From an uncultured bacterium (GTDB taxonomy: Bacteria; Verrucomicrobiota; Kiritimatiellia; UBA8416; CAMZLY01): a DNA stretch of 63,906 nt. The notes beneath the pieces were generated by a model, which was given only the letters and a program-made list of their open reading frames with translations, was not told the origin of the DNA and did not search any database. The DNA lies in the NCBI GenBank assembly GCA_947311825.1, contig CAMZLY010000081.1, positions 1 to 63,906 on the forward strand, written 5' to 3'. The position numbers and the translations under genes are program-made. Position 1 is the stretch's first letter; the number at the start of each line of letters is the position of its first letter. Shown piece after piece: positions 14,644-54,424 of the stretch.

Positions 14644-14685
14644 TGTACGTTGGCTCCTCATTCTTTTTCATCCCGTATTTTTTTT

Positions 14686-14803: not shown

Positions 14804-14808
14804 TTCTT

Positions 14809-15380: not shown

Positions 15381-15405
15381 ATATTCTTCCTACAGAGAAT
15401 ACTGA

Positions 15406-33022: not shown

Positions 33023-33096
33023 AATACAGTTCCTTTTCTTACATCCCTAACCTTCTCTGACCCCTAAAGCCTTTTAAACCCTTTTTCACGTCCCTA

Positions 33097-34131
33097 CTAC
33101 TCAGAAGGTAAAGATAATTCTGTTGTGGCACTAACCGAAATTGTACTTTTTCCATTATTGGGTAACTTAAGATTTGGTAATATCTGATCCATCAAATCAG
33201 CCACATTTTCTTTTGCATGGAAACGTTCCCCAAGATAATTATCAAATAATTCTTTCTGCTCATCATTAAGAACACCCTTAGCCTTAGCATCAACTTTATC
33301 AAAATTTACTATATTATCTTCAAGTGCATTACTAGCAGCATCCCCCAAGTTTTCTTCTTCACCCGTAGGATTAATCTTAAACTGCACCGCCCCGTAAGAA
33401 AGAGGAATATCTTTCACCGTATCAGGATCCAACTTCATAAACTCATCAACCTGCGTCCCCGTAAGTGCATGCCCATTCTCAGCAAGATAACTCGCAAAAT
33501 CATCTACAAATAACCTCGTAGGAAGCTCTTCCTCATATTTTTTATACTGATCATACTTATCCCCCAACAAATCACTGATTTGCTTATCAACGTCCTCCCC
33601 AGCCCCGCCCGTCAGCCATAAATTGCTTTTTTTATTCAACAAAGCCATCAATTTCTTTTTCACACTATCAGAAACCTCAATCTTATCAAATAAAACCGAA
33701 TACTTATCTTCCAGCGTAGGAGCAGAACTATTGGCGTTTTGCATATCAATAAGACTACTTAGCTTTTGGGACAACTCCTCTCCATCCTTCAAATTAGCAC
33801 TAACTACGTCTGAACTGCCGGCAACATCTATTGTTTTATTATCCTTTTTAACGCTATCTTTTGCTACCTGCATAATTTGTAAAGACTTGTTTTTCTCCTT
33901 CAAATCCGCAAGCTGTTCCCGCAATATCTTTATCTCGCTATCCTTATCAGTAAGCTCATTTTTCAACGTCTTAACAACCATATTATCAGCATCTACACCA
34001 CTATCCTTAACCTCAGGCAGATTCTCGCTCTCTCTATTCAGAAAACTCTTATTTTGCATTATCTGACGTGCATACAAAATAGACAAAACAACTACAGCAA
34101 CAGATAAAACAACAATAATACTTCTTTTCAT
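33097..34131 (-). CDS. Secreted or anchored coiled-coil protein of unknown function
   Basis: 344 aa. An N-terminal hydrophobic helix (IIVVLSVAVVVLSILYA), then a coiled-coil stretch (EIKILREQLADLKEKNKSL) and an acidic helical remainder. No family recognised. Confidence 0.35.
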   Translation of the reverse strand: MKRSIIVVLSVAVVVLSILYARQIMQNKSFLNRESENLPEVKDSGVDADNMVVKTLKNELTDKDSEIKILREQLADLKEKNKSLQIMQVAKDSVKKDNKTIDVAGSSDVVSANLKDGEELSQKLSSLIDMQNANSSAPTLEDKYSVLFDKIEVSDSVKKKLMALLNKKSNLWLTGGAGEDVDKQISDLLGDKYDQYKKYEEELPTRLFVDDFASYLAENGHALTGTQVDEFMKLDPDTVKDIPLSYGAVQFKINPTGEEENLGDAASNALEDNIVNFDKVDAKAKGVLNDEQKELFDNYLGERFHAKENVADLMDQILPNLKLPNNGKSTISVSATTELSLPSE

Positions 34132-34400
34132 ATTAATAAACCCTTTTACATTTATAATTACAGACCAAAATAAGAAAAAATCACCTAGATGAAAAGAAAA
34201 TTCTCATCTAATCCATTGCTAGTGACTTATTGTTTTTTTAGAATTGCTAAAAAAATAAATATATGCTCTAATTTCGCAATGGCTCAAATACAATAAACAA
34301 CCTTCTAAGGAACAAAACAATTAAAACAAAAAAAATATCACTACTATTAATATGTACACTATTTGCGACAACATTAGTATACGCAACCATATTCAGCTCC

Positions 34401-35615
34401 ATGTTTCCACTTGCAAACTTCTTTATGACCATAAAAGGAACAAGCTTACATTATCCACCAAATACTGCGTTTACTTATATAGCTACAGAAACAAATGCAC
34501 CCTACCCTGGCTACTTAACCCCTACAACAGGATCCGTATTCTCTAACAAAATAATACGTGTATCTGACTACCCATCCGTTATCGCAGAAGAACCATACCC
34601 CAAAACTCAAGCATGGAATATTGACGGAACTCTGTTAATGCTATACTACAAACTATTAGACGGAAAAACATACCAAACTATCGCAAGTAATATTTGGTGG
34701 GATGATGATGAACGCAAATGGTCCGCTGTGTATCCGCACATTTACTACGCAATGGAACACTATATAGATACAAATGGTGATGGTACTAACGATCACTCTT
34801 TTGTCAAGCGCGATGTAACGCCGGTTTTATCAGGATCCAGCACGCCACTCAAAGAAGTACTAATAAGTTTTACTAACAACTTATACGACGAACTACTACT
34901 TGGCAAATATGAAGGCAACATTGATCACCAAGATAAATATGTTGTTTTTGCCGCCAAAAAGAAAAATACCAATTATCTCACTGCCATAGTATTTGACATC
35001 CAAAACAAGCAAATAACAGCTCAGGCAGATTTCACAAATATAACCTGGACAGATAGCAATGGATATCAAGTGCTAGACTGGATATCGGTATCACCATCAG
35101 GTAATTATATTCTAATAGACTGGAAAAAAGACCCAGATAATCCAGATCCGGTTTTCCGTTATTCAATTGATCAATATGATATTAATCTAAACTTCATACG
35201 TGAACTTGCCGCACAAGGAGAGCACGGAGATATTGGCGTAGATACCAACGGAACGGATACATTCATCCAATTTGAGTTTGGAAGCAGAGCAGGAATATGG
35301 GCATACAACCTCGCAACCGGAGGAGAGACAAGGCTACTCCCCAGCAAATATAACGGTGGTCACATAAGCTGCCGTAACTATAAACGCCCAGGATGGTGCT
35401 ACCCCAGCACTAACAAAGAAGGCTTTAAGGAAGTATTTGCACTAAAACTTGATGGTAGCGGTATAGTTAACCGGTTTGCACAAACCCACATAACCGATCC
35501 CAACTCAGAAGGAGGTGTCAGCCCCGACGGCACAAAAATGATATTCAAAAGCAGTTGGGGTGGAGCAACCTCAAATGGAACAGACGAAACCTTTGTGGTC
35601 GAACCATACAAATAA
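34401..35615 (+). CDS. Hypothetical protein, possibly beta-propeller-like and exported
   Basis: 404 aa from the first ATG. Rich in W/Y/G/D/N repeats. An in-frame hydrophobic signal-like stretch lies upstream of the ATG (see findings). Confidence 0.35.
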   Translation: MFPLANFFMTIKGTSLHYPPNTAFTYIATETNAPYPGYLTPTTGSVFSNKIIRVSDYPSVIAEEPYPKTQAWNIDGTLLMLYYKLLDGKTYQTIASNIWWDDDERKWSAVYPHIYYAMEHYIDTNGDGTNDHSFVKRDVTPVLSGSSTPLKEVLISFTNNLYDELLLGKYEGNIDHQDKYVVFAAKKKNTNYLTAIVFDIQNKQITAQADFTNITWTDSNGYQVLDWISVSPSGNYILIDWKKDPDNPDPVFRYSIDQYDINLNFIRELAAQGEHGDIGVDTNGTDTFIQFEFGSRAGIWAYNLATGGETRLLPSKYNGGHISCRNYKRPGWCYPSTNKEGFKEVFALKLDGSGIVNRFAQTHITDPNSEGGVSPDGTKMIFKSSWGGATSNGTDETFVVEPYK

Positions 35616-35679: not shown

Positions 35680-36495
35680 CTATTCTTCTGTTGTTTTCTT
35701 TCGCCAAATCTTTAATTCATTCATTATAGCAACATGTGCCGCAACAACATTCATCATAACGGCAGGCTCCTTTTCTTTAGTAAAAGCAGAACCTCTGTAG
35801 GCAGAAACCAACGTAAGCATATCCTCACTAGCCCACGAAGGCTGTTTTAATCTAAGAAATGTCCATATATCACATCGCGAATTATTCCACTTTGCCTGAA
35901 GCATCATTTTCGTATTAGTAATTGGATGCTTTAAACTGGACCATGTTAATCCACGAGGCACCCAACTAGGATCCTCCTCCATACCTACCCTGGGGAACAC
36001 CATAGAGCGAACATCAATCGCTAATGCAGAGAAGTCACCTGACCTCAACATGCTAGTAACCCAAATAGATATACCACCTGAACTTGATGTTAATCGCCAA
36101 ATCTGCAACTGCTTAGGCAAATTATTAGTAACAGATTCATGCCCACGCCTAGTATCGGCAAGCAAGTCAACTGTATATCCCTTAATCTTCATGCAATCGC
36201 ACATATTGTAACCATGCACTAATCTAGTTAAAACAATAGAATCATTTTCTTGCTCCCGCGGTTTAATCATGAATGCAGCAACATTTGGCTCCATCACGGT
36301 TGTAACAACCGGTACCGACTTAATAATATATTTACTTTTATCACTCTGTTCAAAGCCAACAAAAGCATCATTGCTTAACTTAAAAGCATCGAGAGCACGA
36401 TTACTGTAACTTGACATTATTTCCCAGAATCCCACCAAGAAAACACAAACAAGAAGTGCCACAGCTGTAACTATCTGTTTTTTTTCATGTGCCAT
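35680..36495 (-). CDS. Membrane-anchored protein, tentatively EpsI-like (exosortase-associated)
   Basis: About 271 aa from the ATG at 36495 (the track's TTG is at 36510). One TM helix, then a soluble domain containing VHGYNMCDCMKIKGY. This recalls the H-x4-C-x4-G-(W/Y) block I remember from EpsI-family proteins. Last gene of the exosortase operon. Weak call. Confidence 0.3.
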   Translation of the reverse strand: MAHEKKQIVTAVALLVCVFLVGFWEIMSSYSNRALDAFKLSNDAFVGFEQSDKSKYIIKSVPVVTTVMEPNVAAFMIKPREQENDSIVLTRLVHGYNMCDCMKIKGYTVDLLADTRRGHESVTNNLPKQLQIWRLTSSSGGISIWVTSMLRSGDFSALAIDVRSMVFPRVGMEEDPSWVPRGLTWSSLKHPITNTKMMLQAKWNNSRCDIWTFLRLKQPSWASEDMLTLVSAYRGSAFTKEKEPAVMMNVVAAHVAIMNELKIWRKKTTEE

Positions 36496-36512
36496 CCAAA
36501 GCCTCTTCAATT

Positions 36513-37934
36513 CTACTTTGATCGCTCTTTTCCAAAAAGGACAATACGTAAAGTACTAAGAATAATCTGTAAATCAAGACTCAACGATAAATGTTTAATA
36601 TAATAAAGGTCATACTCTAATTTTCGCTTAGCATCTTCAACTGAACTACCGTAATGATATCTAATTTGTGCCCAGCCAGTAAGCCCCGGCATCACATTCT
36701 CTCTTTCACGATAAAAAGGAATATCTTTTTCAATCCGGTTTATAATAGAGGTACGTTCTGGGCGTGGACCAACTAAGTTCATTTCTCCACGTAAAATATT
36801 AAAAAACTGCGGAATTTCATCTATCCTTGTTTTGCGCAATATGCGCCCAAACCAAGTAATTCTTTCATCATTATCTGCAGCCCAAACTGGTCCAGTATCA
36901 TCTTCCGCACCATGCCGCATTGTGCGAAGTTTATATATCGTAAAAAGTACACCAAAACGCCCTTCTCTTTCCTGAGAATATAGAATGGGACTACGAGGCT
37001 CAAGTATCTTCATAATCAAAGCTACTAATAATAACAATGGTGCAGATAAAATGACGGCAAATAAGGAAATAAGTATATCTGATATTCTTTTCATCCTCCA
37101 TATACTCTGCAAACGTGACTCCATACTAACCTGCATCAATAATTCCTCATCAACATATTCTAATGGAGTCATTCCGCTATATATTTCAGCAATATGCAAT
37201 GGCAAAAGAACCTCCATCCCATTGAAGCGTAAATGTTTTAATTGCGGATATAATATATTAGCCTTACTCATATCATCAAGTGCAAGTATAATTAAATCAA
37301 CCCCCAGACTATTGACAACCTCTTCTAATTTATCTGGAGATGCATAAATCACCACTACACCATCATTAAAATCAGAACCAGAACGTAATTCAACCTTAGT
37401 GTCCAAAACAGAAATGAAAGCTACCGCTTTATGTGCAGGGAGCACAAATTCTTTTTCTATAATACGACGACAAAACCTAGCACTCTTACCGCTACCAATA
37501 ATAACAGAACGACAAGTAAAACGCTCACTTCTGAATAGTGCCCTATAGACCATCATTTTAAGGGATAACGACACGACACTGTAAACTATAACAGAAATAA
37601 GAAGTACGCCACGTCCAAGCACCACCATAAACCAAGCATAAGAAGTAATACTAAGGATAAAAAGAGCAAAAACCAATGAGAATAGCCAAGTAACAATGAG
37701 GTTAAACCTGGAAAATGTATATTGAACTCTATAGCTACCAGCCAAATAATTAGCTAAGATAACACCACCAAAGAACATCATCCAGCCATCTATATGCTCA
37801 AAAGCATAAACTGCGGTTGCTCCATGTCCTAGCCGACCAATGATACCAGCCGCACCGCCGATAATTAGACAAACTAAATCTATTAACGCCAACCAAGCAA
37901 TCTGTACACGAACATGTGAACGAGCCATTACCAT
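36513..37934 (-). CDS. Polyprenyl-phosphate hexose-1-phosphate transferase (bacterial sugar transferase, WbaP/EpsB-like)
   Basis: 473 aa. N-terminal TM helices, a central Rossmann-like part, and a C-terminal catalytic domain with YKLRTM, DEIPQFFNILRGEMNLVGPRPE and KLEYDLYYI. Confidence 0.85.
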   Translation of the reverse strand: MVMARSHVRVQIAWLALIDLVCLIIGGAAGIIGRLGHGATAVYAFEHIDGWMMFFGGVILANYLAGSYRVQYTFSRFNLIVTWLFSLVFALFILSITSYAWFMVVLGRGVLLISVIVYSVVSLSLKMMVYRALFRSERFTCRSVIIGSGKSARFCRRIIEKEFVLPAHKAVAFISVLDTKVELRSGSDFNDGVVVIYASPDKLEEVVNSLGVDLIILALDDMSKANILYPQLKHLRFNGMEVLLPLHIAEIYSGMTPLEYVDEELLMQVSMESRLQSIWRMKRISDILISLFAVILSAPLLLLVALIMKILEPRSPILYSQEREGRFGVLFTIYKLRTMRHGAEDDTGPVWAADNDERITWFGRILRKTRIDEIPQFFNILRGEMNLVGPRPERTSIINRIEKDIPFYRERENVMPGLTGWAQIRYHYGSSVEDAKRKLEYDLYYIKHLSLSLDLQIILSTLRIVLFGKERSK

Positions 37935-37962
37935 AGTTTGATCCTATTTTATAACTCAACTA

Positions 37963-40266
37963 TCAAGAGAAAGTATTTCTAACCCACCGATCAAATGATT
38001 TTCTTGCATTTTGTAGTGGATTCTTGCGGCGATATTTAACCGCTTTACCCTTTTGCTCACCATAATTATAATAATTATAACCATAGGCATAAGCATTACT
38101 GTAATAAGCATAATTAGGATATTGATAAGCATAATAAAGACTGCTTATCTTATGCATTTCAATACTATTCATAATTAATCCCAATACATTTGCTTCCTTC
38201 AACATATCAAGAGAATAGCGAATCAGTGGTTTTGGAGTATGATTAACACGTGCAACATATATAACCACTCCAACGCCCAGCGTTGTCATAATAACCGTAT
38301 CAGTTACTCGCAGAATTGGTGATGTATCAACAAAAATATAGTCATAATCATCTTGTAGTTCTACCAACATTGCCATTAGATTTGCTGACTGTAACATTTC
38401 AGATGAACCATCATACGTTTTACCTGTCGGAGCCAAGGAAAGATTTTCTATGCGCGTAGAAACAATAACATCCTTAATAGTACGTTGATCTTTTAATGCA
38501 TCAGTGATACCAGGAGCCTTTGAAACACCTAATGATCTATGCAGGCGTCCACGACGTAAATCCATGTCAATCAACAAAACCTTCTTCTCCATCTGTGCTG
38601 TCATAATAGCTAAATTAAGCGTTGTTAATGTTTTTCCTTCACGGGAATCAGCACTGGTAACAAAAACAATCTTTTCATTAAGCTTAGCAAGCTCTGTAAT
38701 CAAAACTGTACGCAGTGCACGATACGCCTCTACCGCTCCTGAAGAATGCTCTTCTGTCACAATTGGACGAACCGTACGCTCAAGACCACTATGCACCCAA
38801 TAAGGAACCCCACCTAAGAATTTAATTTCTAAATCTTTTTCAACATCTTTAATAGATTGAATCTTATTATCCAGAAACTGCATAAAAAATGATATCCCAA
38901 AACCTGCACCAAGCCCAATAACAACCGCAACTAACAATATTCTTGAGGGATCTGGCCAAGTGGGCTTTGTCGGAGATGTTGCATGTCGTACTATTGAAAA
39001 TCTTTCGGTATTCGTTTCTTCAGCAATCTTTGTTTCATGATAACGTGCGTAAAGTGTACTGTAGTTTTTCTTATACCGTGTAAGCGAATCCTTAAACCTT
39101 GATAACTCAGTTTCTTTAACCATAGATTGCAAACGTTTTGCCTGCCATTTATATTCCATAGACTCAAGTGATTTAAGTAAAATCAACATTGATTTATGCT
39201 TATCCCTCAAAGACATAAGCTTTAACTGTGCCAAATAATTCATCTGATCTTTAATGTTTTTTATTTTAGCATCAACAGCACGCACAAGCTGATGTTCAGG
39301 AGTTAGATTCTTTTGGAGTTCCGCTTTTTCATCTTTAAGATTTAATAATTTCAATCGTAAAGTTACCAACCCTGTAATTTCATCTTCACCACTTGTCCCC
39401 TTGCCGGGATTGACCGTACTTCCATTCCCATCGCTATCTTCAGGAAAAGCATCTTTCAACCATTCATCATCATTTCCGCCAGTTTTCCTCCCGGCCGCAT
39501 CAAATTTAGAAGCTTTATCTGACACTATACCGGCAGCCATACTATCAACTGCTGAGATCACTGCTAGATTGGAATCTTTTAATTCAGGATTAGCAGTTTC
39601 CATCATAAACAGTTCGGTCTCAAGGGCAGTGCGACGACTCATTATACGCTTAATAAACCCCTCCTCAACCCTAGCTCTAATAGTTTGCCGTGTAAGGTCA
39701 TTCAGTCGAGTATATTCTATAATATTATTCTGGGCTTCTTCTATTTTTTCTTCTGTAAGTGACATCTCTGCTAACAACGCCTTAATCGCATTACTCATTG
39801 ACTGCCGTTGCTTACTACGCCATTGCACCTCATGAATCGATAATAATGTATCAAGAAATTTTATTGCATACTCACGGTTAACACACTTAGTCGAGATGGT
39901 AACGCTTGACCTGCCCGGTCGTGCAGAAACAGACAACGCCATCGCCTTACGCCCCCCCATTTGCTCAGACCACTCATCAAATAATTTATCCACTGTACGA
40001 TCCCGTAAATCGGCACTGGACAATAATTGCGCATGCGTTCCCGGTCGTGCCCATTGCCCTGCAGCCTTAGTAACAGTTGTCAATGGATCACGATAAATGG
40101 AAATAGCACAACTTGCTTCGTACTGTGGAGGAGTAAAATCAATATATAACACACCGCCAAGCAGTGCATATAAAAAACAGACAACGATAGTCTTCCAATG
40201 GAAAAAAATCATTCCTATATATAGCCGAATATCTATCGGTTCGCTTTGTTCTAATTCTTGTGGCAT
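37963..40266 (-). CDS. Polysaccharide co-polymerase / BY-kinase (Wzc-like chain-length determinant with tyrosine autokinase)
   Basis: 767 aa. Two TM helices flank a long coiled-coil periplasmic region. Walker A SADSREGKT, Walker A' LLIDMDLRR, Walker B IFVDTSP. The tail is Tyr-rich: YYAYQYPNYAYYSNAYAYGYNYYNYG. Confidence 0.85.
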   Translation of the reverse strand: MPQELEQSEPIDIRLYIGMIFFHWKTIVVCFLYALLGGVLYIDFTPPQYEASCAISIYRDPLTTVTKAAGQWARPGTHAQLLSSADLRDRTVDKLFDEWSEQMGGRKAMALSVSARPGRSSVTISTKCVNREYAIKFLDTLLSIHEVQWRSKQRQSMSNAIKALLAEMSLTEEKIEEAQNNIIEYTRLNDLTRQTIRARVEEGFIKRIMSRRTALETELFMMETANPELKDSNLAVISAVDSMAAGIVSDKASKFDAAGRKTGGNDDEWLKDAFPEDSDGNGSTVNPGKGTSGEDEITGLVTLRLKLLNLKDEKAELQKNLTPEHQLVRAVDAKIKNIKDQMNYLAQLKLMSLRDKHKSMLILLKSLESMEYKWQAKRLQSMVKETELSRFKDSLTRYKKNYSTLYARYHETKIAEETNTERFSIVRHATSPTKPTWPDPSRILLVAVVIGLGAGFGISFFMQFLDNKIQSIKDVEKDLEIKFLGGVPYWVHSGLERTVRPIVTEEHSSGAVEAYRALRTVLITELAKLNEKIVFVTSADSREGKTLTTLNLAIMTAQMEKKVLLIDMDLRRGRLHRSLGVSKAPGITDALKDQRTIKDVIVSTRIENLSLAPTGKTYDGSSEMLQSANLMAMLVELQDDYDYIFVDTSPILRVTDTVIMTTLGVGVVIYVARVNHTPKPLIRYSLDMLKEANVLGLIMNSIEMHKISSLYYAYQYPNYAYYSNAYAYGYNYYNYGEQKGKAVKYRRKNPLQNARKSFDRWVRNTFS

Positions 40267-40278
40267 TTAGGCGTCCTT

Positions 40279-41376
40279 CTAGAAAAGGCTAATACGGCGA
40301 GCGGGAACAATTACACGGTCACCATCTTCTAAGGCGAAATCCTGCTCAGGATTACCCTCTTTCATTATCTGCTTTGCATTTACGGTGAATTCAACATCTT
40401 CACCAGCAGCATTTTTTCTTATAACTCTAATGGCTTTTTCTTTTGCATAAAGCGGCAACCCACCTATTTTGAACATAAGGTTCATCATTGTAGCTGATTC
40501 AGCAGGACCAAAAGTAATAAAGCCTTTTCTTCGAACCTCCCCCAGCAACAAAATAGTTACTGGCTCAATTTTGGTTTCTGATACACCGCCACCTTCAACA
40601 TCTGACGCCGTTACCTTGCCGCCGACAATAACACGAACCAGATCATTGTTCCGTAATCGCAATGAAGGAACCCGAGGGGTACCATCATCATCGACAAGGT
40701 AATAATCCTCGCCCGGCAAAGAGTATGCAAGTGGCGACTGAAGACCATCTTTAACAACACTTACTTTTATTTTATTGGCAGATGCATTCAACCCGCCCGC
40801 ACGCAATAATAAGTCATTAAGTGATATGGAGTCACCTGCTCCAATCTGAATAATACCTGGCTTAGTAACAGATCCCACAATTTTAACCTTGTCGTATGAT
40901 GCCCTTAAAATTCTTACCTTAACTGTAGCCCTACTGAAATTGCGTGTTTTTAAAACTTCTTCAATTTTACGAGCCGCCTCACGTTCAGTTTTATTAAACA
41001 AAAATACCGGCCCCACATATTTCAGCTGAACAGCACCAAGGTTATTAACAGTATAACTACCGTCTAGCGATGGATCTTCCGCCACATTGATCATTAACAG
41101 GCAATCGGGTTGAATAGTTATACTTTCGTCTGAATCTGAATATCCGCTATCACTATATTTTCCTGCCGCATCTCCAGCGGCAGAAACAGGCGGTAACCCC
41201 GTCATTGGTGCATCCGGAGCATCTGGTCCGGCAGGAATATCATCAACTACTTCAGCAACATCAGAGGCTTCTAGTTCGGCCAAATATTGTTGGGCTGCCA
41301 CATCACGCTTTGTTGCACAACCCATGCCACCAAAAACCATAATACTCATTAAAAATAGTAATAAAAATCGTTGCAT
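40279..41376 (-). CDS. Outer-membrane polysaccharide export lipoprotein (Wza-like, Poly_export + SLBB)
   Basis: 365 aa. Lipobox VFGGMGC, the Poly_export-like block ITIQPDCLLMINVAEDPSLDGSYTVNNLGAVQLKYVG, and the C-terminal GDRVIVP. Confidence 0.8.
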   Translation of the reverse strand: MQRFLLLFLMSIMVFGGMGCATKRDVAAQQYLAELEASDVAEVVDDIPAGPDAPDAPMTGLPPVSAAGDAAGKYSDSGYSDSDESITIQPDCLLMINVAEDPSLDGSYTVNNLGAVQLKYVGPVFLFNKTEREAARKIEEVLKTRNFSRATVKVRILRASYDKVKIVGSVTKPGIIQIGAGDSISLNDLLLRAGGLNASANKIKVSVVKDGLQSPLAYSLPGEDYYLVDDDGTPRVPSLRLRNNDLVRVIVGGKVTASDVEGGGVSETKIEPVTILLLGEVRRKGFITFGPAESATMMNLMFKIGGLPLYAKEKAIRVIRKNAAGEDVEFTVNAKQIMKEGNPEQDFALEDGDRVIVPARRISLF

Positions 41377-41485
41377 ATTTCATTCATCCCGCTATTAAAC
41401 CAATAAACTAGTTAAATTTACATTAATACGAATGGTTGTTGTATATCCTGTTTTGACAAATAAAGTCAACCATAAAACCATCGTA

Positions 41486-44400
41486 TTATAACCTTTTGTT
41501 ATCCCTTATTGCTTTTTCAACCTCTTTAAGCATCACTTTTGACGTTTTATCTACAATAAAATTGCGGCCAGAACTCACCCCAACTTCAGTAATAATGCCT
41601 TTTGCTTCCTTTATATTACCAGCCTTAAAAAGTATTCTTGCCATATTAAGACGCATTTCCAACACCCTTGAATCATCATCAGGTACTAGAGCCATAGCCT
41701 TATCCATGTACTTACGAGCCAACTCAATCTCACCACTATACAAATAGACCATTGCCACAGTATCAAGAATTTCAAAGGATCCTTCACTATTTTCCAAAAG
41801 TTTATCCAAATATACACGAGCCTTATCAACTGTTGCCGGGTTCATAGCAAGATAATACACATAGTTGTTTAAAACTGATATATCTTGCGGATGTAATCTG
41901 TTTGTAGCATCAATTATACTTATTGCCTGCTTGTTTTCACCCTGCTGCCGAGCTGCTTCCGCCGCTAACATTAACGATTCTGTACGAACCTCTTTTATAT
42001 TGTTTTCTATCATCGGCTCCAAAACATCTAAAGCTCGTTTCATATCTTTATTTTTGAAATAAACAAAACCCAATGTTTCGTTCAACTGAGAACTACTGCC
42101 ACTACTACTACGCAAAAACTCTAGAGCGTTAACCATAGCACCATCAGTTTCTTTTTGTGCAACCTTAATTTGCACTATTGTTTTATAAAATATTGCCGGG
42201 TCATGTGCAAGCAAGATACTATCAAAGGCCAAATCAAGTGCTAATTGCCAATCTTTATTCTTTAATGCACAACGTAAACCCAAAACATACGGCGGCAATA
42301 CGCCATATCCATTTTTCACACCATACTCTGCCGCTACTGCGGCTGAGTCGATTAAGTTATTACGATACAATAAATCACCCGCACGCGTTATATCTCTAAC
42401 GGAATATGCAGAATTACTTACAGCCTCAACAACCATATCACCAACAGCCGCAGCAGTTTCATTACTCATACTTACCACAACATCCGCCAGCCATATACTA
42501 GAATCATTGGGACACGCAATTCTGGCGGCTTTAACAACATCTTTAGCACCCTTTGCCAGCTTGATTTGTAATCGATGCAAAAGTGGATTATGCGGCATAT
42601 ACTCAATGGCTTTCGATAAAGCCTGCTTAGCTACAGAATAATGCTCCTGCTGAATTGACAAAAGTGCCAATCGGTGCAAAGCATCACTTTTCTCATAGTC
42701 ATCTCTCCCTACGGCATCCCAGTCATCAATTTTTACATATTTCGACTCCCCGCCAGATTTATACCAAACTGCCGTTATCGCCGCTAAATTCTTTACAAAT
42801 GGACTAACTGCACCTTTCTCTACTGTTTCAAAAGCAACAGCACGATCTTTTAGTTGCTCATCAGTTAATGGTTTTGGCCAAATATCAGCAATAACACGCT
42901 CAGCCGGAGCAAAGTTTAAAAGCGTACTGTTTTCTATCCCTCTCCTGACTAACCGAGTTCCCCATACCTTACTCATCTTGTCAGCTTCTTTAAAACGCCC
43001 CGTATCATATAACAGTTGCGGCGATATTGCCGCCGAATTGAGAAGCCCCGCCTGATCCAACACAAAGAAAGCGTCTTCGGGAAAGCCAAACATATTCCAG
43101 AGAGCAACTTTTGATAAAGCAAGTTGCGGGGCACCAGAGAATATTCCTTCTGCATCCCGAATCAACTGCATCGCTGAAATACCCATATCTAAATGTATCA
43201 TTGCATTTATATTCTGCAAAACCGCATTAAGAGTGATTTCACCAGCAACCAGATTATATTGGCGTAGCGTCTCATATACCTTCCCCCAGCGCTTTTCCTC
43301 TGTATATAATGTGGCTTGACGCAACAATAAATCACGCTTCTGCTCTGGATATTGTACCAATAAAGCCGCCAACATCTTATGGGCTTCAGCGTACTCACCA
43401 TCAAGAGCCAAAACAAATGGATACATAATCTGCATACGATAACTCAACAAACCAGATTCACTTCTTTTTTTTAGTTCACCAAGACATTTAATCAAACTTG
43501 CCGCACGCAAATCCTCTATATCATCAACCAATAATTCTGACCTTAAAGGCACTTCAGCCAAAAATGATTTTAATGGCTCTACAGACTCTGTTAATTTACA
43601 AAACTCTCGCAAATCAAGAAGATTTTCCCGTTCATCTATCGGCACCTCAATATCTTTTCTTGAAAATCTAAACCAATTCACTCCAAACTGTACCACCGCC
43701 AACGCAAGAGCCGGATCATCAGCATCTAACTGCTGTAAATCAAGATAAGCAATCCAGCCCAAATCGGGTCGCTGCAACTTAAAACAATTCCCGAGATATT
43801 CAGCCAAAACATCTTGCGGCAATCTAGTAAGGTTGGCTTTAAAGTTCGCTGCCATCTTTTCCTCCCAGCCCGCACCTGGACGGCTAAGTGCCATCTTTGT
43901 AATATACCCCAAAAACCTCGCATCTTCAGGCCAACTTTTTAAAGCAACCCTTAATACCCGCTCCGCACCAAGTATATTTCTTTCCCGCAAATTAGCACTA
44001 ACAGCTATCAATGCCTGCGAGACCTCATCAAACGGAACGTCACTATTACAGTCAACTATTGCACCCCACTGCTCACGTGTAGCCAAATATGGGAAAAGAT
44101 TACGAACCCGCGAAGAAAGAGCCGTCCATTTAGCTGCCAATACAATATTCTTACTAACATCTTCTGCATTATCTTTACGTGCCGCATATTCAGCACGAAC
44201 AATAGCAACTCCCGGCAGACGTTTATCAGCATCAGGCAACGCATTAAGCACATCCATCGCTTCATCCATACGATCCAAGGCCATTAATGCCCAGCTTTTC
44301 CAGATCACCTCAATCAATTCTAGCTCACCATCAAGTGCATCTATTTTTACCAACACATCTTCAAATCTTTTCTGCTTCAACAGAATTCGTATCTGCTCAA

Positions 44401-45493
44401 TCCGCATCTCAGTATCGTCAGGGTCATACGCCAATACCTTCTCAATTGCACGGGCGGCAAGTTCTGGATCCCGTTCTGTCAATCCGGGAATAACATCACG
44501 AATCATCTCATTGCGATGGCTTGGCCTTGATTTAATTGCCGCAAAAACCACCACCAATATAAGCGTCATTCCCAAAACAACAAAACCACCCCTCCTGGAC
44601 ATAAAACGCCAAAACTTAGGTAATACACTACCAAGATCTGCCGGTTCAAGTTCACCGCGCAAAATCCCGCTTCTAATACGTATTCTCTTATCTGACCAAT
44701 ATTTATACAAAGACATTTCCACTTGGATAATCATAATAGATATAAAAAGAAATATACCGAGAGTATCATGCAGAAAAGTAGAAGCCCATTCCGGTGACAT
44801 TTGAGGTGCCCAATATACCATACCACTAATACGTACTACATTAAAAAACAACACTTGCACCACGCTAAATACCAAAAATGACAATAATTGCCACCACTTA
44901 AATCTTAGAAGAATACTGGTACCCAAAGTACACAACACCACCGTAACAGCCGTACGCATACCGCTACATGACTCCGGCACTCCAAACGTGGAACCATTAG
45001 TATAAAGAGCCATGCCATCAGCCCATACCCTGATATTAAACCCGTGCAATACCCATTCAGACACCTTAACCGATATCATCTGCATAATAATCTGAAAATG
45101 CCCAAAAATCTGCCCTGGCAACGGATGAACCCAATAAAGCATAAAAAGCGACAGCACAATATCTGTACCAAAACGAACAGGCAACGCCCATCGTAGGCAT
45201 GCATACAGCACAAAAATCAGGCCCAACCACTCAAACTGATGCACATGGAAAATAATACCATACAACGCCATAATAGTACCGCAACCACCAACTACCGGCA
45301 AAACCCATTCAGGTATTTTTACAACCACATCCCGTTCTTTCCAACGAAACAAAATAAATATCGCAAAAAACACTCCCAGAACAAACCGAATAAACCCCTC
45401 CTCATCTCCAGTCAGCCGCCCATAATTAGCAATACCCCAAGCCACCATCAAGAAACCGGCAGCAAACAAAACTATTTTTTTTACAAAACTCAT
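41486..45493 (-). CDS. Exosortase (EpsH/Xrt-like transpeptidase) fused to a ~1000-aa TPR/helical-repeat domain
   Basis: One uninterrupted ORF. The N-terminal ~290 aa are polytopic, with GVPESCSGMRT (Cys), FFNVVRISGM (Arg) and FLHDTLGIF (His) in exosortase order. An extra TM helix follows, then long helical repeats to the C-terminus. ATG at 45493; the track's GTG is at 45505. Confidence 0.7.
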   Translation of the reverse strand: MSFVKKIVLFAAGFLMVAWGIANYGRLTGDEEGFIRFVLGVFFAIFILFRWKERDVVVKIPEWVLPVVGGCGTIMALYGIIFHVHQFEWLGLIFVLYACLRWALPVRFGTDIVLSLFMLYWVHPLPGQIFGHFQIIMQMISVKVSEWVLHGFNIRVWADGMALYTNGSTFGVPESCSGMRTAVTVVLCTLGTSILLRFKWWQLLSFLVFSVVQVLFFNVVRISGMVYWAPQMSPEWASTFLHDTLGIFLFISIMIIQVEMSLYKYWSDKRIRIRSGILRGELEPADLGSVLPKFWRFMSRRGGFVVLGMTLILVVVFAAIKSRPSHRNEMIRDVIPGLTERDPELAARAIEKVLAYDPDDTEMRIEQIRILLKQKRFEDVLVKIDALDGELELIEVIWKSWALMALDRMDEAMDVLNALPDADKRLPGVAIVRAEYAARKDNAEDVSKNIVLAAKWTALSSRVRNLFPYLATREQWGAIVDCNSDVPFDEVSQALIAVSANLRERNILGAERVLRVALKSWPEDARFLGYITKMALSRPGAGWEEKMAANFKANLTRLPQDVLAEYLGNCFKLQRPDLGWIAYLDLQQLDADDPALALAVVQFGVNWFRFSRKDIEVPIDERENLLDLREFCKLTESVEPLKSFLAEVPLRSELLVDDIEDLRAASLIKCLGELKKRSESGLLSYRMQIMYPFVLALDGEYAEAHKMLAALLVQYPEQKRDLLLRQATLYTEEKRWGKVYETLRQYNLVAGEITLNAVLQNINAMIHLDMGISAMQLIRDAEGIFSGAPQLALSKVALWNMFGFPEDAFFVLDQAGLLNSAAISPQLLYDTGRFKEADKMSKVWGTRLVRRGIENSTLLNFAPAERVIADIWPKPLTDEQLKDRAVAFETVEKGAVSPFVKNLAAITAVWYKSGGESKYVKIDDWDAVGRDDYEKSDALHRLALLSIQQEHYSVAKQALSKAIEYMPHNPLLHRLQIKLAKGAKDVVKAARIACPNDSSIWLADVVVSMSNETAAAVGDMVVEAVSNSAYSVRDITRAGDLLYRNNLIDSAAVAAEYGVKNGYGVLPPYVLGLRCALKNKDWQLALDLAFDSILLAHDPAIFYKTIVQIKVAQKETDGAMVNALEFLRSSSGSSSQLNETLGFVYFKNKDMKRALDVLEPMIENNIKEVRTESLMLAAEAARQQGENKQAISIIDATNRLHPQDISVLNNYVYYLAMNPATVDKARVYLDKLLENSEGSFEILDTVAMVYLYSGEIELARKYMDKAMALVPDDDSRVLEMRLNMARILFKAGNIKEAKGIITEVGVSSGRNFIVDKTSKVMLKEVEKAIRDNKRL

Positions 45494-45523
45494 ATAAAGA
45501 ACCACCCCAATATATTAACAAAC

Positions 45524-47044
45524 TTAAAATTGATGGGTATAACGGAAATATGCCTCAAAAATATCACGAGTATAAACTAGATCGTCATTATCACTATCCC
45601 GAGAAACATGTGTATAATATGTGTAAAACTTGATTGTCTTTGTTACAGCAAAAGAAGATCCGATGCGCCCCATCCATGTATCGTAGTTGGATGTAGTTTC
45701 AGGATCATATAATTCATTCGGTAATAAATTAGGCTGATTCTCGCGTACCTGATAACGTAACACTCCATGCAATTCTATATACCTTGTTAGAGGGTAAGTA
45801 ACATCCAGTCGTGTAATCCAATCAGCGTAATCACTAAATATATTTCCACTCGGCACTGTTGTTCTATATTCAGAAAGCAAAGTAGCCGTAGTTGCCTCAC
45901 CATGCCATTCCAACCGATACTCAAGACTATCAACAAGCTCAAAAGCCGTACGATAACCAGTATTTATACTGCTGGAATATCCAAGCGAATGCCACACATC
46001 CTCCATCAACAACGTCTTAATACTAGCAAACCAAATAAACTGAGCAAAATTATTGCCATCAGCACCATATATATCAGAAATATTATTGGTAGATATCACC
46101 CCATCAACATTGCGAATCTGATCCCCCGCACGTATCTCACCATTAACTCCAGCAGAATACCCTATACCTATTGATGCCGTTGTATAATCACTCATCTTGA
46201 TGTGTAATCCATTATCATCACCAAGCCCATCATTATATCTAGCAAAAAGATAAAACGACTGATAACTATTATCAGGTCTATAATCAACCTTATAAGTTGT
46301 CTGATTAAAGCTATAATTGCCACCAACGGATATATTGCCGATCACACGTTGTGAATACTCCAACATCTGTTCATACGTAATACGTTCCTGATCGTCAAAT
46401 CCGTCACTAAAAGGAATAACATCTTGGCGACTTACATCAAATCGAAACTTCTTACCCCGTGCAAAATTCCAGTCAAGATATGTACCAATAGTATTATCAA
46501 TATACTCATACCGTTCACCACCATAACGGTCTGCATTTCCACGCGTATCAAAATAATCAGTGCGATACTTAAATCGATCATATAACGTACCGGTAAGCAC
46601 TGGTGTTATCCGGTAATTCAAAGTAATCGTTCCTAATACTCCCTCCTCCGGCATATCAAAATAAAACCCGCCCTCCTGCGTATCTAACGGATAATACTCA
46701 TAACTCATCCAGAACGAAATATCCAAATCCATCTTCCTTGTTATCAAAACATAATTCCTGAACGACAAAGTTGAAATCAACGGAAAATCTGAACCATCTT
46801 TTCTGATCTCACCACGCCGATTATTATAAAGATAATCGGTGCCTTTACCGGAACTCCCGGTCCACCTATATCCAAACTGTTGCGTAAATGCTACCGTTGA
46901 ATAAAATGGGCCAATCCGTAAAGTAGCATAATCAGGAATATTAACATCACGAGTATTATCAAAAGTTATTGCCTGCCCAAACAACATCCCCGCAAAAAAC
47001 AAATACGCCACAATAACAACTATTATGTTTTTATATATTCTCAA
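45524..47044 (-). CDS. Outer-membrane beta-barrel protein of unknown function
   Basis: 506 aa. Signal peptide (RIYKNIIVVIVAYLFFAGMLFGQ), alternating aromatic beta-strand pattern rich in Y/R/D/N/G, and a terminal ...FRYTHQF (C-terminal Phe). TTG start. Confidence 0.6.
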   Translation of the reverse strand: MRIYKNIIVVIVAYLFFAGMLFGQAITFDNTRDVNIPDYATLRIGPFYSTVAFTQQFGYRWTGSSGKGTDYLYNNRRGEIRKDGSDFPLISTLSFRNYVLITRKMDLDISFWMSYEYYPLDTQEGGFYFDMPEEGVLGTITLNYRITPVLTGTLYDRFKYRTDYFDTRGNADRYGGERYEYIDNTIGTYLDWNFARGKKFRFDVSRQDVIPFSDGFDDQERITYEQMLEYSQRVIGNISVGGNYSFNQTTYKVDYRPDNSYQSFYLFARYNDGLGDDNGLHIKMSDYTTASIGIGYSAGVNGEIRAGDQIRNVDGVISTNNISDIYGADGNNFAQFIWFASIKTLLMEDVWHSLGYSSSINTGYRTAFELVDSLEYRLEWHGEATTATLLSEYRTTVPSGNIFSDYADWITRLDVTYPLTRYIELHGVLRYQVRENQPNLLPNELYDPETTSNYDTWMGRIGSSFAVTKTIKFYTYYTHVSRDSDNDDLVYTRDIFEAYFRYTHQF

Positions 47045-47072
47045 ATCATCTCCACAATAAATATTACTACTT

Positions 47073-47089
47073 GAGGTGCTTGCAAAACT
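47073..47089 (+). repeat. Solo copy of the GAGGTGCTTGCAAAACT motif (MITE-end family)
   Basis: The same 17-mer as at 58631. It lies 29 nt outside the OMP start codon. Confidence 0.7.
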
Positions 47090-47147
47090 TTCTCATTATA
47101 ATAACCATAAAATCTGTGTTATGTAAATACTTTATATAAAGAGGGTG

Positions 47148-48767
47148 CTATTTCCGTAAAAAAACTTCAAGCCGCGTTCCGGCCTGTCCAAAACTATCTA
47201 CAGCATAACACAACTCATAATTTCGTTCTAAAATCTCCCATAAAACAACCTGTTCTTGCACCGGTAACTCAGCAACTTCAGGACAGCCAATTGCAAAACC
47301 ATAACCACTAAAAGCAGCTACCGGAGCAGAAGCCTTCTCCAATAATTCAATTAATGACGTTCTATTAAGCACATGACAAGCATCAGCCTTCTCTCGTGAC
47401 CAATTCGGAAAATAACTGAAAGGCCCCAGCTCCAAGCCATACGGAACCCGTGCTCCAGTTTCAACTGCCAAATAAATATCCTGCGTCAAAAGCAAATCAT
47501 TCGGGCCCAACTCTTTTCTGATTTCAGCGGCAGTCTCACGCAATATTGCCAATGAACTTTTTTCCTTAAAAGGCCACCATATTCTATCTCGGTCTCCAAT
47601 AAACCAGCCCTGAATCATAGGTGATGCAAACGCCGCCGCCATATTAAGAATAAAAACAATCAGTAATAACACCACTAAAGGCGAATATTTTGATCCTTCT
47701 GTTAAAACAGTAAAACTTGATAACAATCTAATAATAAATATAGACAGAAAAACAGCCAACAAAGGAAATATCATAACCTGATAATCATCATACGGAAAAG
47801 CCGCAACAAAATGTAATAGTGTAACAGCCGCAATAGCTACACAAAGAGACATATACAATGGAGACCATGCCTGACCTCGTTTTTTTGTTAGCCAAGTAAC
47901 AACCCCACCGACAAGTAAGCCTCCCAATGCAACAAAATAAACATTAAATAGCCGAGCAACAAACCCGGCCTTATAAGCCAAAATCTTAAATAACCCTCCC
48001 GCTTCACGTCCTGCATGATATTCAACAAGCCCAAACAACGTGGCCTCCGGTGCTTTTATCAAAAACGGCAAAAAAACCAATAACCCCGTCAATAACGCAC
48101 CAGCGGCAACCCACACAGCCGTTTTGAGATGAGAAGCATCACCCTTACCACGTAAAACATAAATAATATATACCAGTAAAACTGCCGGAATAACAGCAAT
48201 TGCCGAAAGACGCGTAGCAACAGCAAGTGACATAAACACACCAGAGATAAAAGCCGGCAGATAACCACGCTTTCCTTTACAAAAACTCAAAGCCAGAAAA
48301 CTACACACCAACAACAATCCAGCAAGAGCATAAGTTTTTACAATAACAAAGAAATAAGATTGATAAACATTTATCCCGATAAAAACAAATGTCATCAATG
48401 CCGCTACCCCCGCAACCTCCTTGGTCTCTTTTTGTTTTTCTGAGTTTAATACCATCATGCGATAAGCAAGCCAAGCCGCACCAATAGTGCAAAGCAAGCC
48501 CAAAACCGCCGTAAATATTCTCCCCCCCAACACACCAAAAGCATCAACCAATGGCCAGGCAATAGCATAAACAAACGCCATAATCGGCCCCTGCGTACTC
48601 GCAAAATCAATAAATGGCAACTGTCCCTCCGCCACCATCCTTCCAGAATAAAGATACCAGCCCTCATCCTGATTAAGCTCACCAAACCAAATATTAGCCG
48701 TAGCAAGCACCAAAGTTGCAACAACCACAACAGGCCAAAGAATCTCCAATAAACGTTTTATACTCAT
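47148..48767 (-). CDS. GT-C fold glycosyltransferase (ArnT/PMT-like, polyprenyl-phosphate-sugar dependent)
   Basis: 539 aa. More than 10 TM helices in the N-terminal two-thirds, an early acidic loop motif (GELNQDEGWY), and a soluble C-terminal domain. This architecture is typical of GT39/GT83-type enzymes. Confidence 0.65.
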   Translation of the reverse strand: MSIKRLLEILWPVVVVATLVLATANIWFGELNQDEGWYLYSGRMVAEGQLPFIDFASTQGPIMAFVYAIAWPLVDAFGVLGGRIFTAVLGLLCTIGAAWLAYRMMVLNSEKQKETKEVAGVAALMTFVFIGINVYQSYFFVIVKTYALAGLLLVCSFLALSFCKGKRGYLPAFISGVFMSLAVATRLSAIAVIPAVLLVYIIYVLRGKGDASHLKTAVWVAAGALLTGLLVFLPFLIKAPEATLFGLVEYHAGREAGGLFKILAYKAGFVARLFNVYFVALGGLLVGGVVTWLTKKRGQAWSPLYMSLCVAIAAVTLLHFVAAFPYDDYQVMIFPLLAVFLSIFIIRLLSSFTVLTEGSKYSPLVVLLLIVFILNMAAAFASPMIQGWFIGDRDRIWWPFKEKSSLAILRETAAEIRKELGPNDLLLTQDIYLAVETGARVPYGLELGPFSYFPNWSREKADACHVLNRTSLIELLEKASAPVAAFSGYGFAIGCPEVAELPVQEQVVLWEILERNYELCYAVDSFGQAGTRLEVFLRK

Positions 48768-48768
48768 C

Positions 48769-48845
48769 CACTATTCACTATTCACTATTCACTATCCACT
48801 ATCCACTATTCACTATCCACTATCCACTATCCACTATTCACTATT
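48769..48845 (-). repeat. Heptamer tandem array, 11 complete units of CACTATT / CACTATC
   Basis: Counted unit by unit. The pyrE TGA (rc of 48845-48847) lies at the junction of the last full unit and the following partial unit. The ATG of the GT-C gene (48767) is 1 nt from the other end. Confidence 0.95.
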
Positions 48846-49438
48846 CACGATCCCGGATGAACAAGCGGCAATTTTTGTTTACAAAGCGGACATTCATCCG
48901 GTGCCCATGTTATCGGCTCCATCTCTAATAAACTAAAAGTCGGATAGCCAAAATCAACTTTTCCACCACTTCTATTTACCAACAACGCCACAGCGACAAC
49001 TTCGCCGCCAGCATTCTTAACAATATCAATAGTCTCCTGCACACGCCCGCCACGAGTAACCACATCTTCAGCTACCACAATCTTTTCACCAGGATTTATT
49101 TTAAAGCGACGTAAATACAACTTATCATCCTGCTTTTCAGCAAAAATAGACTTCACCCCGATCTCACGAGCAACTTCATGCCCTACGACTATACCACCCA
49201 ATGCAGGTGCAATCACAGTATCAACAGCACCCAAGACCCCGGCAATAGTCATTTTTTCAACCAAGGCCTCACAACATTGTTGTGCATAAATAGGATAGCT
49301 CAACAAATTTGCACACTGAAAAAAACGATCACTATGCAACCCAGACCTCAATTCAAAATGCCCCTCAAGCAATGCATCAGTATTTTTCAGTATCTCAACG
49401 ACTTCTTCCGGTTTCATCATATTTGTCAAATCTTTCAT
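48845..49438 (-). CDS. pyrE: Orotate phosphoribosyltransferase
   Basis: 197 aa. PRPP-binding motif KIVVAEDVVTRGG and the N-terminal FELRSGLHSDRFFQ. Confidence 0.9.
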   Translation of the reverse strand: MKDLTNMMKPEEVVEILKNTDALLEGHFELRSGLHSDRFFQCANLLSYPIYAQQCCEALVEKMTIAGVLGAVDTVIAPALGGIVVGHEVAREIGVKSIFAEKQDDKLYLRRFKINPGEKIVVAEDVVTRGGRVQETIDIVKNAGGEVVAVALLVNRSGGKVDFGYPTFSLLEMEPITWAPDECPLCKQKLPLVHPGS

Positions 49439-52724: not shown

Positions 52725-52878
52725 ATAATCACCTTTATTAGTTTTAAAGTATCTACCTATCATCATTACGTTCGCTCAGACCTCTTGTGCTCCACTGAAC
52801 ATCAATTCGATAAGAGGATACTCATCATCCGAAGTGACATCAAGTAAAAAGCAATATCACCGCAACTGATAATTGCCA

Positions 52879-52913
52879 ACTGATAACTGATAACTGATAA
52901 CTAATAACTGTTA
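52879..52913. repeat. Second heptamer tandem array: ACTGATA x3, then ACTAATA and ACTGTTA (plus a detached ACTGATA at 52865-52871)
   Basis: Read directly. It lies in the divergent intergenic region between the HIT gene and the second sugar transferase, about 50 nt upstream of the ATG at 52964. Confidence 0.9.
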
Positions 52914-54379: not shown

Positions 54380-54409
54380 GAGGTGCACGCAGATAGTTTT
54401 GTAAGTGCC
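54380..54409 (-). repeat. Reverse-oriented copy of the GAGGTGCTTGCAAAACTAC.. motif family
   Basis: GAGGTGCACGCAGATAGTTTTGTAAGTGCC contains ..CAGATAGTTTTG(C/T)AAGT.CC, the same as the right end of the 24322-24490 element. Confidence 0.6.
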
Positions 54410-54424
54410 GCAAAAGGAAATACT

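Follow-up and report, generated by a model that had tools for sequence, protein, structure and literature searches.

A conserved exosortase-TPR and polysaccharide export cassette in an uncultured Kiritimatiellia bacterium, with PEP-CTERM clients probably encoded elsewhere

The closest described relatives of the locus considered here are the XrtA/PEP-CTERM exopolysaccharide (EPS) loci (PMC1569441; TIGR03109, TIGR02917, TIGR03013, TIGR03018, TIGR03007, TIGR03027, TIGR03016, TIGR02914), in which an exosortase with a Cys/Arg/His triad is found among a phosphoglycosyl transferase (PGT), a chain-length determinant and tyrosine kinase, an outer-membrane polysaccharide export (OPX) protein, a beta-barrel protein, and a tetratricopeptide repeat (TPR) protein. 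According to Haft et al. (2006; PMC1569441), a genome holds a median of eight genes for PEP-CTERM proteins, the clients of these enzymes, and most of these genes are single-gene units scattered around the genome. Two other kinds of exporter offer partial parallels. In Myxococcus xanthus, the EpsY-EpsX and WzaX-WzpX systems (PMC9601211, PMC9603273) combine a short OPX lipoprotein lacking Wza_C, a kinase of the polysaccharide co-polymerase 2a (PCP-2a) type, and a separate barrel gene in the cassette; the window has the first two and a predicted barrel. The synthase-dependent exporters AlgK/AlgE, PgaA, and BcsC link an extended TPR module in the periplasm genetically to an outer-membrane barrel. 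The present analysis concerns contig CAMZLY010000081.1 (assembly GCA_947311825.1) of an uncultured Kiritimatiellia bacterium, analyzed over its full 63,906 bp and referred to below as the window, where a cluster of minus-strand genes joins a protein-sorting exosortase-TPR fusion to polysaccharide export. We read it as a lineage-specific system that is distantly related to XrtA/EPS and built differently.

An initial annotation of the window had described seven co-directional minus-strand genes as a single 13-kb operon reproducing the partner set of a PEP-CTERM/exosortase EPS locus. Open reading frame (ORF) coordinates and hidden Markov model (HMM) scans show that the seven genes are real, and six of their seven assignments hold; the locus does mirror the export and assembly part of such an EPS locus. 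In coordinate order the genes are:

35680-36510, minus strand: 276-aa (271 aa as database-called) N-terminally anchored periplasmic protein of a lineage-specific family
36513-37934, minus strand: 473-aa polyprenyl-phosphate glycosyl-1-phosphate transferase, the PGT, a large WbaP/WcaJ-type initiating enzyme (PF02397)
37963-40266, minus strand: 767-aa PCP-2a polysaccharide co-polymerase and bacterial tyrosine kinase (BY-kinase), Wzc-like (Wzz, GNVR, AAA_31)
40279-41376, minus strand: 365-aa OPX lipoprotein, Wza-like (PF02563, PF22461 twice, PF10531; lipobox ...FGGMGC)
41486-45505, minus strand: exosortase with about eight transmembrane (TM) helices, then a ninth (residues 306-324) and some 1000 aa of TPR repeats that run to residue 1339
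45524-47044, minus strand: 506-aa predicted outer-membrane beta-barrel protein (OMP; signal peptide, C-terminal ...YTHQF)
47148-48767, minus strand: 539-aa integral-membrane glycosyltransferase of the GT-C fold, ArnT/oligosaccharyltransferase-like (AlphaFold2 and Foldseek)

The intervals between them, again in coordinate order, are 2, 28, 12, 109, 18, and 103 nt. The next gene on the same strand, 77 nt from the GT-C gene, is pyrE (orotate phosphoribosyltransferase; 48845-49438, minus strand; TIGR01367 194 vs. a cut-off of 150).

This is a real, conserved cassette of uncultured Lentisphaerota/Kiritimatiellia. Co-occurrence in relatives, which the initial annotation had proposed as a check, is borne out: the gene set recurs around the exosortase gene in dozens of independent loci from metagenome-assembled genomes (MAGs). 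A pattern scan of relatives, with one genome per species, found 65 exosortase-TPR loci (cited below by L numbers), all in MAGs labeled Lentisphaerota, Victivallales, Kiritimatiellia, Verrucomicrobiota, or PVC group, the best exosortase match being 75% identical; a word-indexed homologue search with the exosortase domain gave 5 matches, against the 65 loci of the pattern scan. The window genes that recur in related loci are the seven cassette genes and pyrE, plus a second PGT gene that cross-matches the same PGT genes, while every other window gene is found in at most five. Three neighbors at 32249-35615, encoding proteins of 404, 344, and 257 aa, were considered as members of the system and rejected, as they recur in none. 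The ~80% identical GCA_029940435.1 has exactly the gene order of the window, a divergent GGDEF regulator included. In distant branches of the exosortase tree, the order pyrE, GT-C, OMP, exosortase-TPR, Wza-like, Wzc-like, PGT, 276-aa is found in L013, L019, and L058, and L050 is compatible with it, its contig ending in the Wzc-like gene. The Wza-like gene is directly downstream of the exosortase in 22 of 49 loci. By profile search, the GT-C gene precedes the OMP gene in 20 related loci, and the gene for the 276-aa protein is in the cassette in 10, having moved in two of them (L020, L045) to just upstream of the OMP gene. In three loci the PGT and 276-aa genes are separated by a Wzy_C gene (O-antigen-ligase/polymerase-like; L014 19332-20627, L019 13777-15093, L039 11843-13150); in the window the two are 2 nt apart and no Wzy_C gene is present there.

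Two related loci differ in other ways. In L070 (~80% identical), a carbamoyltransferase gene (Carbam_trans_N/C) and a DUF5989 gene (11016-13044) come after the 276-aa gene, where the window has the convergent gene for the 404-aa protein (34401-35615). In L001 (ena:ERZ26869290 ctg350359) the GT-C-OMP-exosortase block is present twice, inverted, with the junction inside the exosortase gene; this looks like a palindromic assembly artefact.

The enzyme itself falls within the exosortase/archaeosortase superfamily, scoring 98.3 bits against PF09721 (cut-off 25.7; residues 30-260) and 47.9 against TIGR04178 (cut-off 23). All 68 family sequences share the catalytic residues C180 (in CSGM[RK]), R225 (N-x2-RI), and H246 (LHD). 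No NCBIfam exosortase subtype cut-off was reached (XrtA 66.1 vs. 208, XrtD 53.4 vs. 400, XrtV 38 vs. 313), and the general exosortase model TIGR02602 also scored below its cut-off (52 vs. 105.6). Homologues begin MSF or MSL, and translation probably starts from the ATG at 45493 (MSFVKK...), which gives a protein of 1335 aa. The fusion to TPR is kept throughout the 65 loci, at 1330-1400 aa and up to 1620 aa in paralogues. No curated NCBIfam model exists for it, and the literature searched contained no description of an exosortase-TPR fusion or of this partner set, exosortases in Lentisphaerota/Kiritimatiellia being mentioned only in passing.

The TPR region departs from the XrtA paradigm. There, the TPR protein PrsT is a separate lipoprotein, whereas here the repeats are fused to the exosortase through the extra TM helix; the PrsT model TIGR02917 scored 82.2 against a cut-off of 312 and matched residues 1109-1307 of the fused TPR only. 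Because the exosortase helices are even in number and are followed by a basic stretch and the ninth helix (residues 306-324), the TPR arm is predicted to lie in the periplasm. Such an arm, coupled genetically to a barrel, would by analogy recall AlgK/AlgE, PgaA, and BcsC, but in those systems the module is not carried by an inner-membrane, transpeptidase-like exosortase as it is here; the window TPR is fused to neither barrel nor lipoprotein, and there is no synthase.

The most constant neighbor of the exosortase gene is the OMP gene, directly upstream in 38 of the 58 loci with enough upstream DNA. The 506-aa protein is likely a beta-barrel OMP distantly related to the barrels of PEP-CTERM systems. 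The window protein had no family match in Pfam or NCBIfam, and a profile search of the PDB with its family was empty or insignificant. Among 25 homologues, however, there were matches to BBP2_2 (PF10082) in four, OMP_b-brl in three, EpsL (TIGR03014) in two, and TIGR03016 in one, all below cut-offs, with best E-values of 3.7e-5 for BBP2_2 and 2e-4 for EpsL. The sequence has a single hydrophobic segment, at the N-terminus, and a conserved C-terminal aromatic residue. The gene follows the exosortase more closely than it follows the OPX gene, and loci that lack OPX still retain it.

The Wza-like protein consists of Poly_export and two SLBB domains, with no Wza_C and no other Pfam match, and ends 6 residues beyond the last domain match. 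It scored 82 against TIGR03027 (cut-off 180) and 56 against the EpsY model NF041843. By domain content it is a class-3 (D1D2-type) OPX protein, a class that requires a partner barrel (OPX classes as defined in PMC9603273 and PMC9601211). Lacking the outer-membrane-spanning Wza_C, it should therefore require a separate porin, on the Myxococcus model. The EpsY model is among its matches, but in contrast to Myxococcus the window barrel gene adjoins the exosortase gene rather than the OPX gene, and the window barrel family appears closer to BBP2_2/EpsL than to the PgaA-like barrels of Myxococcus.

Downstream, the Wzc-like protein scored above cut-off for TIGR01007 (128.5 vs. 108) and below it for the XrtA-associated kinase model TIGR03018 (144 vs. 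230). It has the Walker A (SREGKT), A' (LLIDMDLRRG), and B (IFVDTSP) motifs and a C-terminal Tyr cluster, so that chain-length determinant and kinase are one protein, a further difference from the XrtA system. The PGT is well above cut-off for PF02397 (207 bits vs. 27) and also above that of TIGR03025 (326 vs. 295.55), and below that of the XrtA-type model TIGR03013 (320.6 vs. 393). For each of four parts, namely the PGT, the kinase, the exporter, and the TPR region, the XrtA-system model ranks first or second among the NCBIfam matches.

The GT-C enzyme and the 276-aa family are conserved partners that the XrtA system does not have, and both are part of a cassette limited to Lentisphaerota/Kiritimatiellia; we infer roles in the system for both. 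The 539-aa protein had no Pfam or NCBIfam match at all, its homologues gave weak matches to PMT_2 (3 of 17) and PMT (1 of 17), a PDB profile search with its family found nothing, and its more than 1500 database homologues all lack a name. An AlphaFold2 model built from a 91-sequence alignment of database homologues has a pLDDT of 95.2 and a pTM of 0.94, and a Foldseek search of the PDB with this model gave 25 matches at E <= 1e-3, every one of them GT-C. The top match is ArnT (5f15; E 1.3e-8, TM 0.63), followed by the oligosaccharyltransferases AglB, STT3, and PglB (archaeal, bacterial, and eukaryotic), ALG9/12, AftA, and Emb. The first periplasmic loop contains an NQDEGWY motif, with D34 and E35 invariant in the 91 sequences. 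Because the modeled fold matches GT-C enzymes only and the Asp-Glu pair is invariant, the GT-C fold assignment is considered confirmed at the level of the model. The protein resembles ArnT and PglB/AglB/STT3 in fold, size, its acidic first-loop motif, and a small C-terminal periplasmic domain. It belongs to neither group at the sequence level, however, and the oligosaccharyltransferase WWDYG motif is absent from it; an invariant DRIWW follows its last TM helix.

BLAST comparisons showed pyrE to be the conserved co-directional upstream neighbor of the GT-C gene in 14 loci, and the pair persists without the rest of the cassette in L068 (9405-11608) and L069. The two genes probably form one block; pyrE is not evidently part of a sorting or export function.

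The seventh gene is the assignment that does not stand. The 276-aa protein had been called EpsI-like, and this is unsupported, because neither model nor profile searches of its family gave any EpsI signal. The EpsI models (TIGR02914 / PF11984) did not match the protein itself, and with limits relaxed to E = 5 for Pfam and E = 1 for NCBIfam they matched none of 8 and 91 homologues, respectively. When 1.84 billion representatives were searched with a profile, there were 147 matches, all from the protein's own family and none fused to an exosortase, so that it appears as an isolated family; all of 164 homologues are annotated as hypothetical. The AlphaFold2 model (pLDDT 85.6) matched the PDB only at insignificant levels, to START/Bet v1-like structures (E >= 0.09, TM ~0.2), and a PDB profile search was empty or insignificant. 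To our knowledge, there is no solved EpsI structure. What does characterize the family is an invariant R-x2-HGYNM-x2-C-x3-K motif. The absence of a detectable EpsI is another difference from the XrtA system.

The initial annotation had also reported that the window contains neither a client nor ordinary glycosyltransferases, Wzx, or Wzy. Because the window is the entire contig, this and the other absences given here are valid for the 63.9-kb contig only. Within it the report is correct: no C-terminal tripartite signal was found in any stop-to-stop ORF by two heuristic scans and a PEP regular expression, an HMM built from the PEP-CTERM tails of relatives found nothing even at E = 10, and GT-A/GT-B enzymes, Wzx, and Wzy were not found among the other window proteins scanned. 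Nor were the sigma-54 regulators PrsK and PrsR of XrtA systems. In itself a 64-kb contig without a client is unremarkable, because PEP-CTERM genes are mostly dispersed and number a median of eight per genome (PMC1569441), and the oddity implied in the initial annotation disappears on this comparison. Its suggestion that clients and polymer-building genes lie elsewhere remains the best reading.

Relatives of the window do have recognizable clients. In 15 loci, a secreted PEP-CTERM protein of 220-280 aa, always of one family, is encoded beside or near the exosortase gene. Its gene is either immediately upstream on the same strand, immediately downstream in convergent orientation, or no more than a few kb away. 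The tail of the protein consists of YGLDN[FW]-x-L-x-[VI]PEP, a TM helix, and an Arg/Lys cluster (RRRK), with PEP invariant in the family alignment. The TIGR02595 cut-off (16 bits) was reached by four of ten client proteins tested, with others just below it; a PDB profile search with the family was empty or insignificant. An HMM of the client tail gave 48-60 bits on clients and more than 10 bits on nothing else in about 1 Mb of neighborhood DNA. Since no other ORF in this ~1 Mb resembles a PEP-CTERM tail, the association of client and exosortase is specific. A reverse search of metagenomes with a five-sequence client alignment found 14 client loci, with the exosortase-TPR gene next to the client in seven; in L075 and L078, with several kb of flanking sequence, the client is present without an exosortase-TPR gene. 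The client-linked loci belong mostly to basal or paralogous clades of the exosortase tree, but L006, L008, L033, and L053 are inside the window's main clade. Of these L033, from a clade of the tree neighboring that of the window, has the exosortase-Wza-Wzc-PGT-276-aa block as in the window and a client gene in place of the OMP gene. In the MAG JASLPY, a window-like locus (L007) coexists with a client-linked paralogue (L060).

Many of the client genes adjoin a paralogue that shares the N-terminal domain and ends in ...PYFYR[IV]xV instead of a PEP-CTERM signal (L023 14973-16202, L053 7923-9200, L060 14903-15859, L031 8940-9899, L008 1972-3000, L079/L080, L084).

Other exosortase subtypes are reportedly paired one to one with their clients, in the work of Haft and colleagues and in NCBIfam. 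The arrangement here is similar in that about a quarter of the family's loci have, next to the exosortase gene or close by, one PEP-CTERM gene that always belongs to the same client family; the window-type loci differ in that this neighbor is replaced by the OMP gene and the EPS export block. The classical signal on these clients is also a point of likeness to the XrtA system.

It is fairly probable that the locus is the local version of a PEP-CTERM/exosortase-EPS system specific to Lentisphaerota/Kiritimatiellia, with clients encoded elsewhere and a mechanism along the following lines. At the inner membrane, the exosortase would use its Cys/Arg/His residues to cleave the PEP-TM-basic anchor with which classical PEP-CTERM proteins end, and the fused TPR arm of ~1000 aa would be a scaffold reaching toward the barrel protein encoded immediately upstream. 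The PGT would begin a lipid-linked glycan on polyprenyl phosphate, and the GT-C enzyme would transfer a sugar on the periplasmic side, to the polymer, a lipid, or a client protein. The Wzc-like protein and the pore-less class-3 OPX protein would carry the polymer across the periplasm. The 506-aa barrel would probably be the outer-membrane pore or exit for the exosortase-TPR protein and, where present, for OPX; it is proposed to serve both because the OPX protein has no pore of its own and yet the barrel tracks the exosortase more closely. Clients, cytoplasmic glycosyltransferases, flippase, and polymerase would be encoded elsewhere in the genome.

Several points weigh against this reading. All members of the family are known from genes alone, and every XrtA-system model (XrtA, PrsT, kinase, exporter, PGT) scored below its cut-off. 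The barrel call comes from weak matches in a minority of homologues together with sequence features. No client is seen on this organism's contig, most window-type loci (those with the OMP gene upstream) have no client gene within 10 kb, and adjacent clients are concentrated in paralogous or basal clades and three branches within the main one. Finally, the link of the GT-C gene to the system is facultative, since it stays with pyrE in L068 without the rest of the cassette.

The last of these points bears on the alternative that survives best, and on the proposal of a single operon. The following features are in or next to the two longer intergenic gaps:

41377-41485, minus strand: 109-nt gap between the exosortase and Wza-like genes, with a promoter-like TTGACT motif
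47045-47147, minus strand: 103-nt gap between the GT-C and OMP genes, with promoter-like TTTACA-N18-TATTAT (consensus scan)
47186-47158, minus strand: hairpin with a T-run, resembling a terminator, within the GT-C gene and very close to its 3' end

The hexamers of TTTACA-N18-TATTAT and their spacing are conserved in L071, and the 109-nt gap is conserved in length and sequence in L070. The number of promoter-like sites in the region as a whole is at chance level in the consensus scan, so the promoter and terminator evidence is only suggestive. The cassette looks modular, with blocks pyrE-GT-C, OMP-exosortase, and Wza-Wzc-PGT-276-aa, each of which is found separately elsewhere; three transcription units appear at least as likely as one 13-kb transcript, and the single operon is doubtful. 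Taken further, this would make the seven genes three independently mobile blocks adjacent by happenstance, with the GT-C enzyme perhaps serving an unrelated envelope glycosylation such as an ArnT-like lipid A modification. The occurrence of pyrE-GT-C alone in L068 and L069 is in its favor, as are OMP-exosortase without Wza-Wzc-PGT in at least nine loci and the reverse in at least five, along with the conserved hexamers in the two gaps (L070/L071) and the hairpin. However, the full order recurs in distant branches of the exosortase tree, as described above, the 276-aa gene remains in the cassette even where it has moved, and the promoter scan is no better than chance overall. Happenstance is, on this evidence, rather unlikely.

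A second alternative is that the window-type exosortase-TPR protein has lost its sorting function and is purely a periplasmic TPR scaffold for polysaccharide export, like AlgK, PgaA, or BcsC, in a genome perhaps without clients. That most window-type loci have no adjacent client would fit this, and the pairing of TPR and barrel, together with an OPX protein without its own pore, does resemble synthase-dependent exporters. The catalytic triad and its surrounding motifs are nonetheless invariant in all 68 sequences, the whole window-type clade included, and L033, L006, L008, and L053, inside that clade, have adjacent clients, which makes a loss of sorting improbable. Least credible, and very improbable, is the suggestion in the initial annotation of a sorting signal of a type not yet described, with clients not spotted by PEP-like motifs: failure to reach any NCBIfam subtype cut-off (new subtypes often pair with variant signals) and a contig without a visible client would be consistent with it, but the exosortase family uses the classical PEP-CTERM signal, members including L033 adjoining proteins with an invariant PEP, TM helix, and Arg/Lys cluster, some of which pass TIGR02595, and broad tripartite scans without a PEP requirement found nothing else near the exosortases of relatives.

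Within the preferred reading of a PEP-CTERM/exosortase-EPS system with clients elsewhere, a bolder proposal may be made, which is speculative and unlikely to hold as it stands. The OMP and exosortase-TPR proteins, whose genes are the constant core, often with the GT-C enzyme, would form a trans-envelope machine. The exosortase would cleave a client, either it or the ArnT/oligosaccharyltransferase-like GT-C enzyme would attach the client to the polyprenyl-linked glycan that the PGT initiates, and the TPR arm would pass the product to the barrel.

Other features of the window are less directly connected to the cassette. The gap between pyrE and the GT-C gene is entirely occupied by a heptamer array:

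48769-48848, minus strand: tandem repeat GAATAGT/GGATAGT, 11.4 copies (Tandem Repeats Finder score 125)

The repeat is absent from the same gap in L071, L072, and L068. Similar arrays are at 5003-5037, 10038-10068, 12076-12108, and 14807-14843, with 4-11 copies across arrays. Their units are minus-strand TGAATAG/GAATAGT, with variants GGATAGT and GAACAGT, and they are intergenic, directly after the stop codons of minus-strand genes; [TC]CACTAT occurs 42 times on the plus strand and its complement twice. With a period of seven, every reading frame meets a TGA or TAG stop. An 82% identical relative lacks the arrays in the corresponding gap, and other relatives lack them too. They could possibly be slipped-strand or frame-independent-stop elements. 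A seven-nucleotide repeat with a different unit, AACTGAT, is found at 52864-52910 (6.7 copies), just upstream of the second large PGT gene (Bac_transf and CoA_binding_3; 52964-54376, plus strand), which is followed by a divergent PAP2 (DUF212) protein gene (54383-54892, plus strand).

The only nearby regulator is a divergent REC-GAF-GGDEF-REC-HD-GYP protein (cyclic di-GMP turnover) adjoining pyrE (49646-52201, plus strand). Its gene is conserved in the ~80% identical relative (L071), and L016 and L049 also encode GGDEF proteins close to their exosortase genes; the protein may regulate the cassette. An Rfam scan found no riboswitch or other RNA near the cassette, the sole match in the window being a tRNA-Glu (58462-58536). 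At 7362-15900 there is a type II secretion/pseudopilin cluster with a GspD-like secretin, PilM/N-like and GspK-like proteins, and several proteins with prepilin-type N-terminal methylation sites. Genes at the contig ends (62604-63773 and 390-2110) may be remnants of mobile elements at assembly breaks: one end has an rve integrase-core gene, the other a Dam-like methyltransferase gene and an unnamed gene. G+C content is ~40%, most genes are on the minus strand, and the GC skew of the plus strand is strongly negative throughout (-0.07 to -0.41 in 2-kb windows).

The absence of a client from the window is ordinary, and it is the fused architecture with its dedicated partners that is of moderate specialist interest. 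The attachment target of PEP-CTERM proteins, their crossing of the outer membrane, and the role of the associated TPR protein are all poorly characterized in exosortase systems. This family hard-wires parts that are separate or absent in the XrtA paradigm, with a TPR arm on the enzyme, a barrel gene directly upstream, and often a GT-C transferase. Four of its families, the exosortase subtype, the GT-C enzyme with its many homologues, the 276-aa protein, and the client, are unnamed in current libraries, and they belong to abundant uncultured polysaccharide-degrading PVC bacteria. If the trans-envelope machine proposed above were real, it would supply concrete genes for the long-postulated glycosylation or attachment step and for an outer-membrane route of PEP-CTERM proteins, and TPR proteins of the PrsT type would be mechanical partners of exosortases rather than regulators. 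With one recognizable client family in relatives, the cassette offers testable hypotheses of physical interaction and a compact model system.

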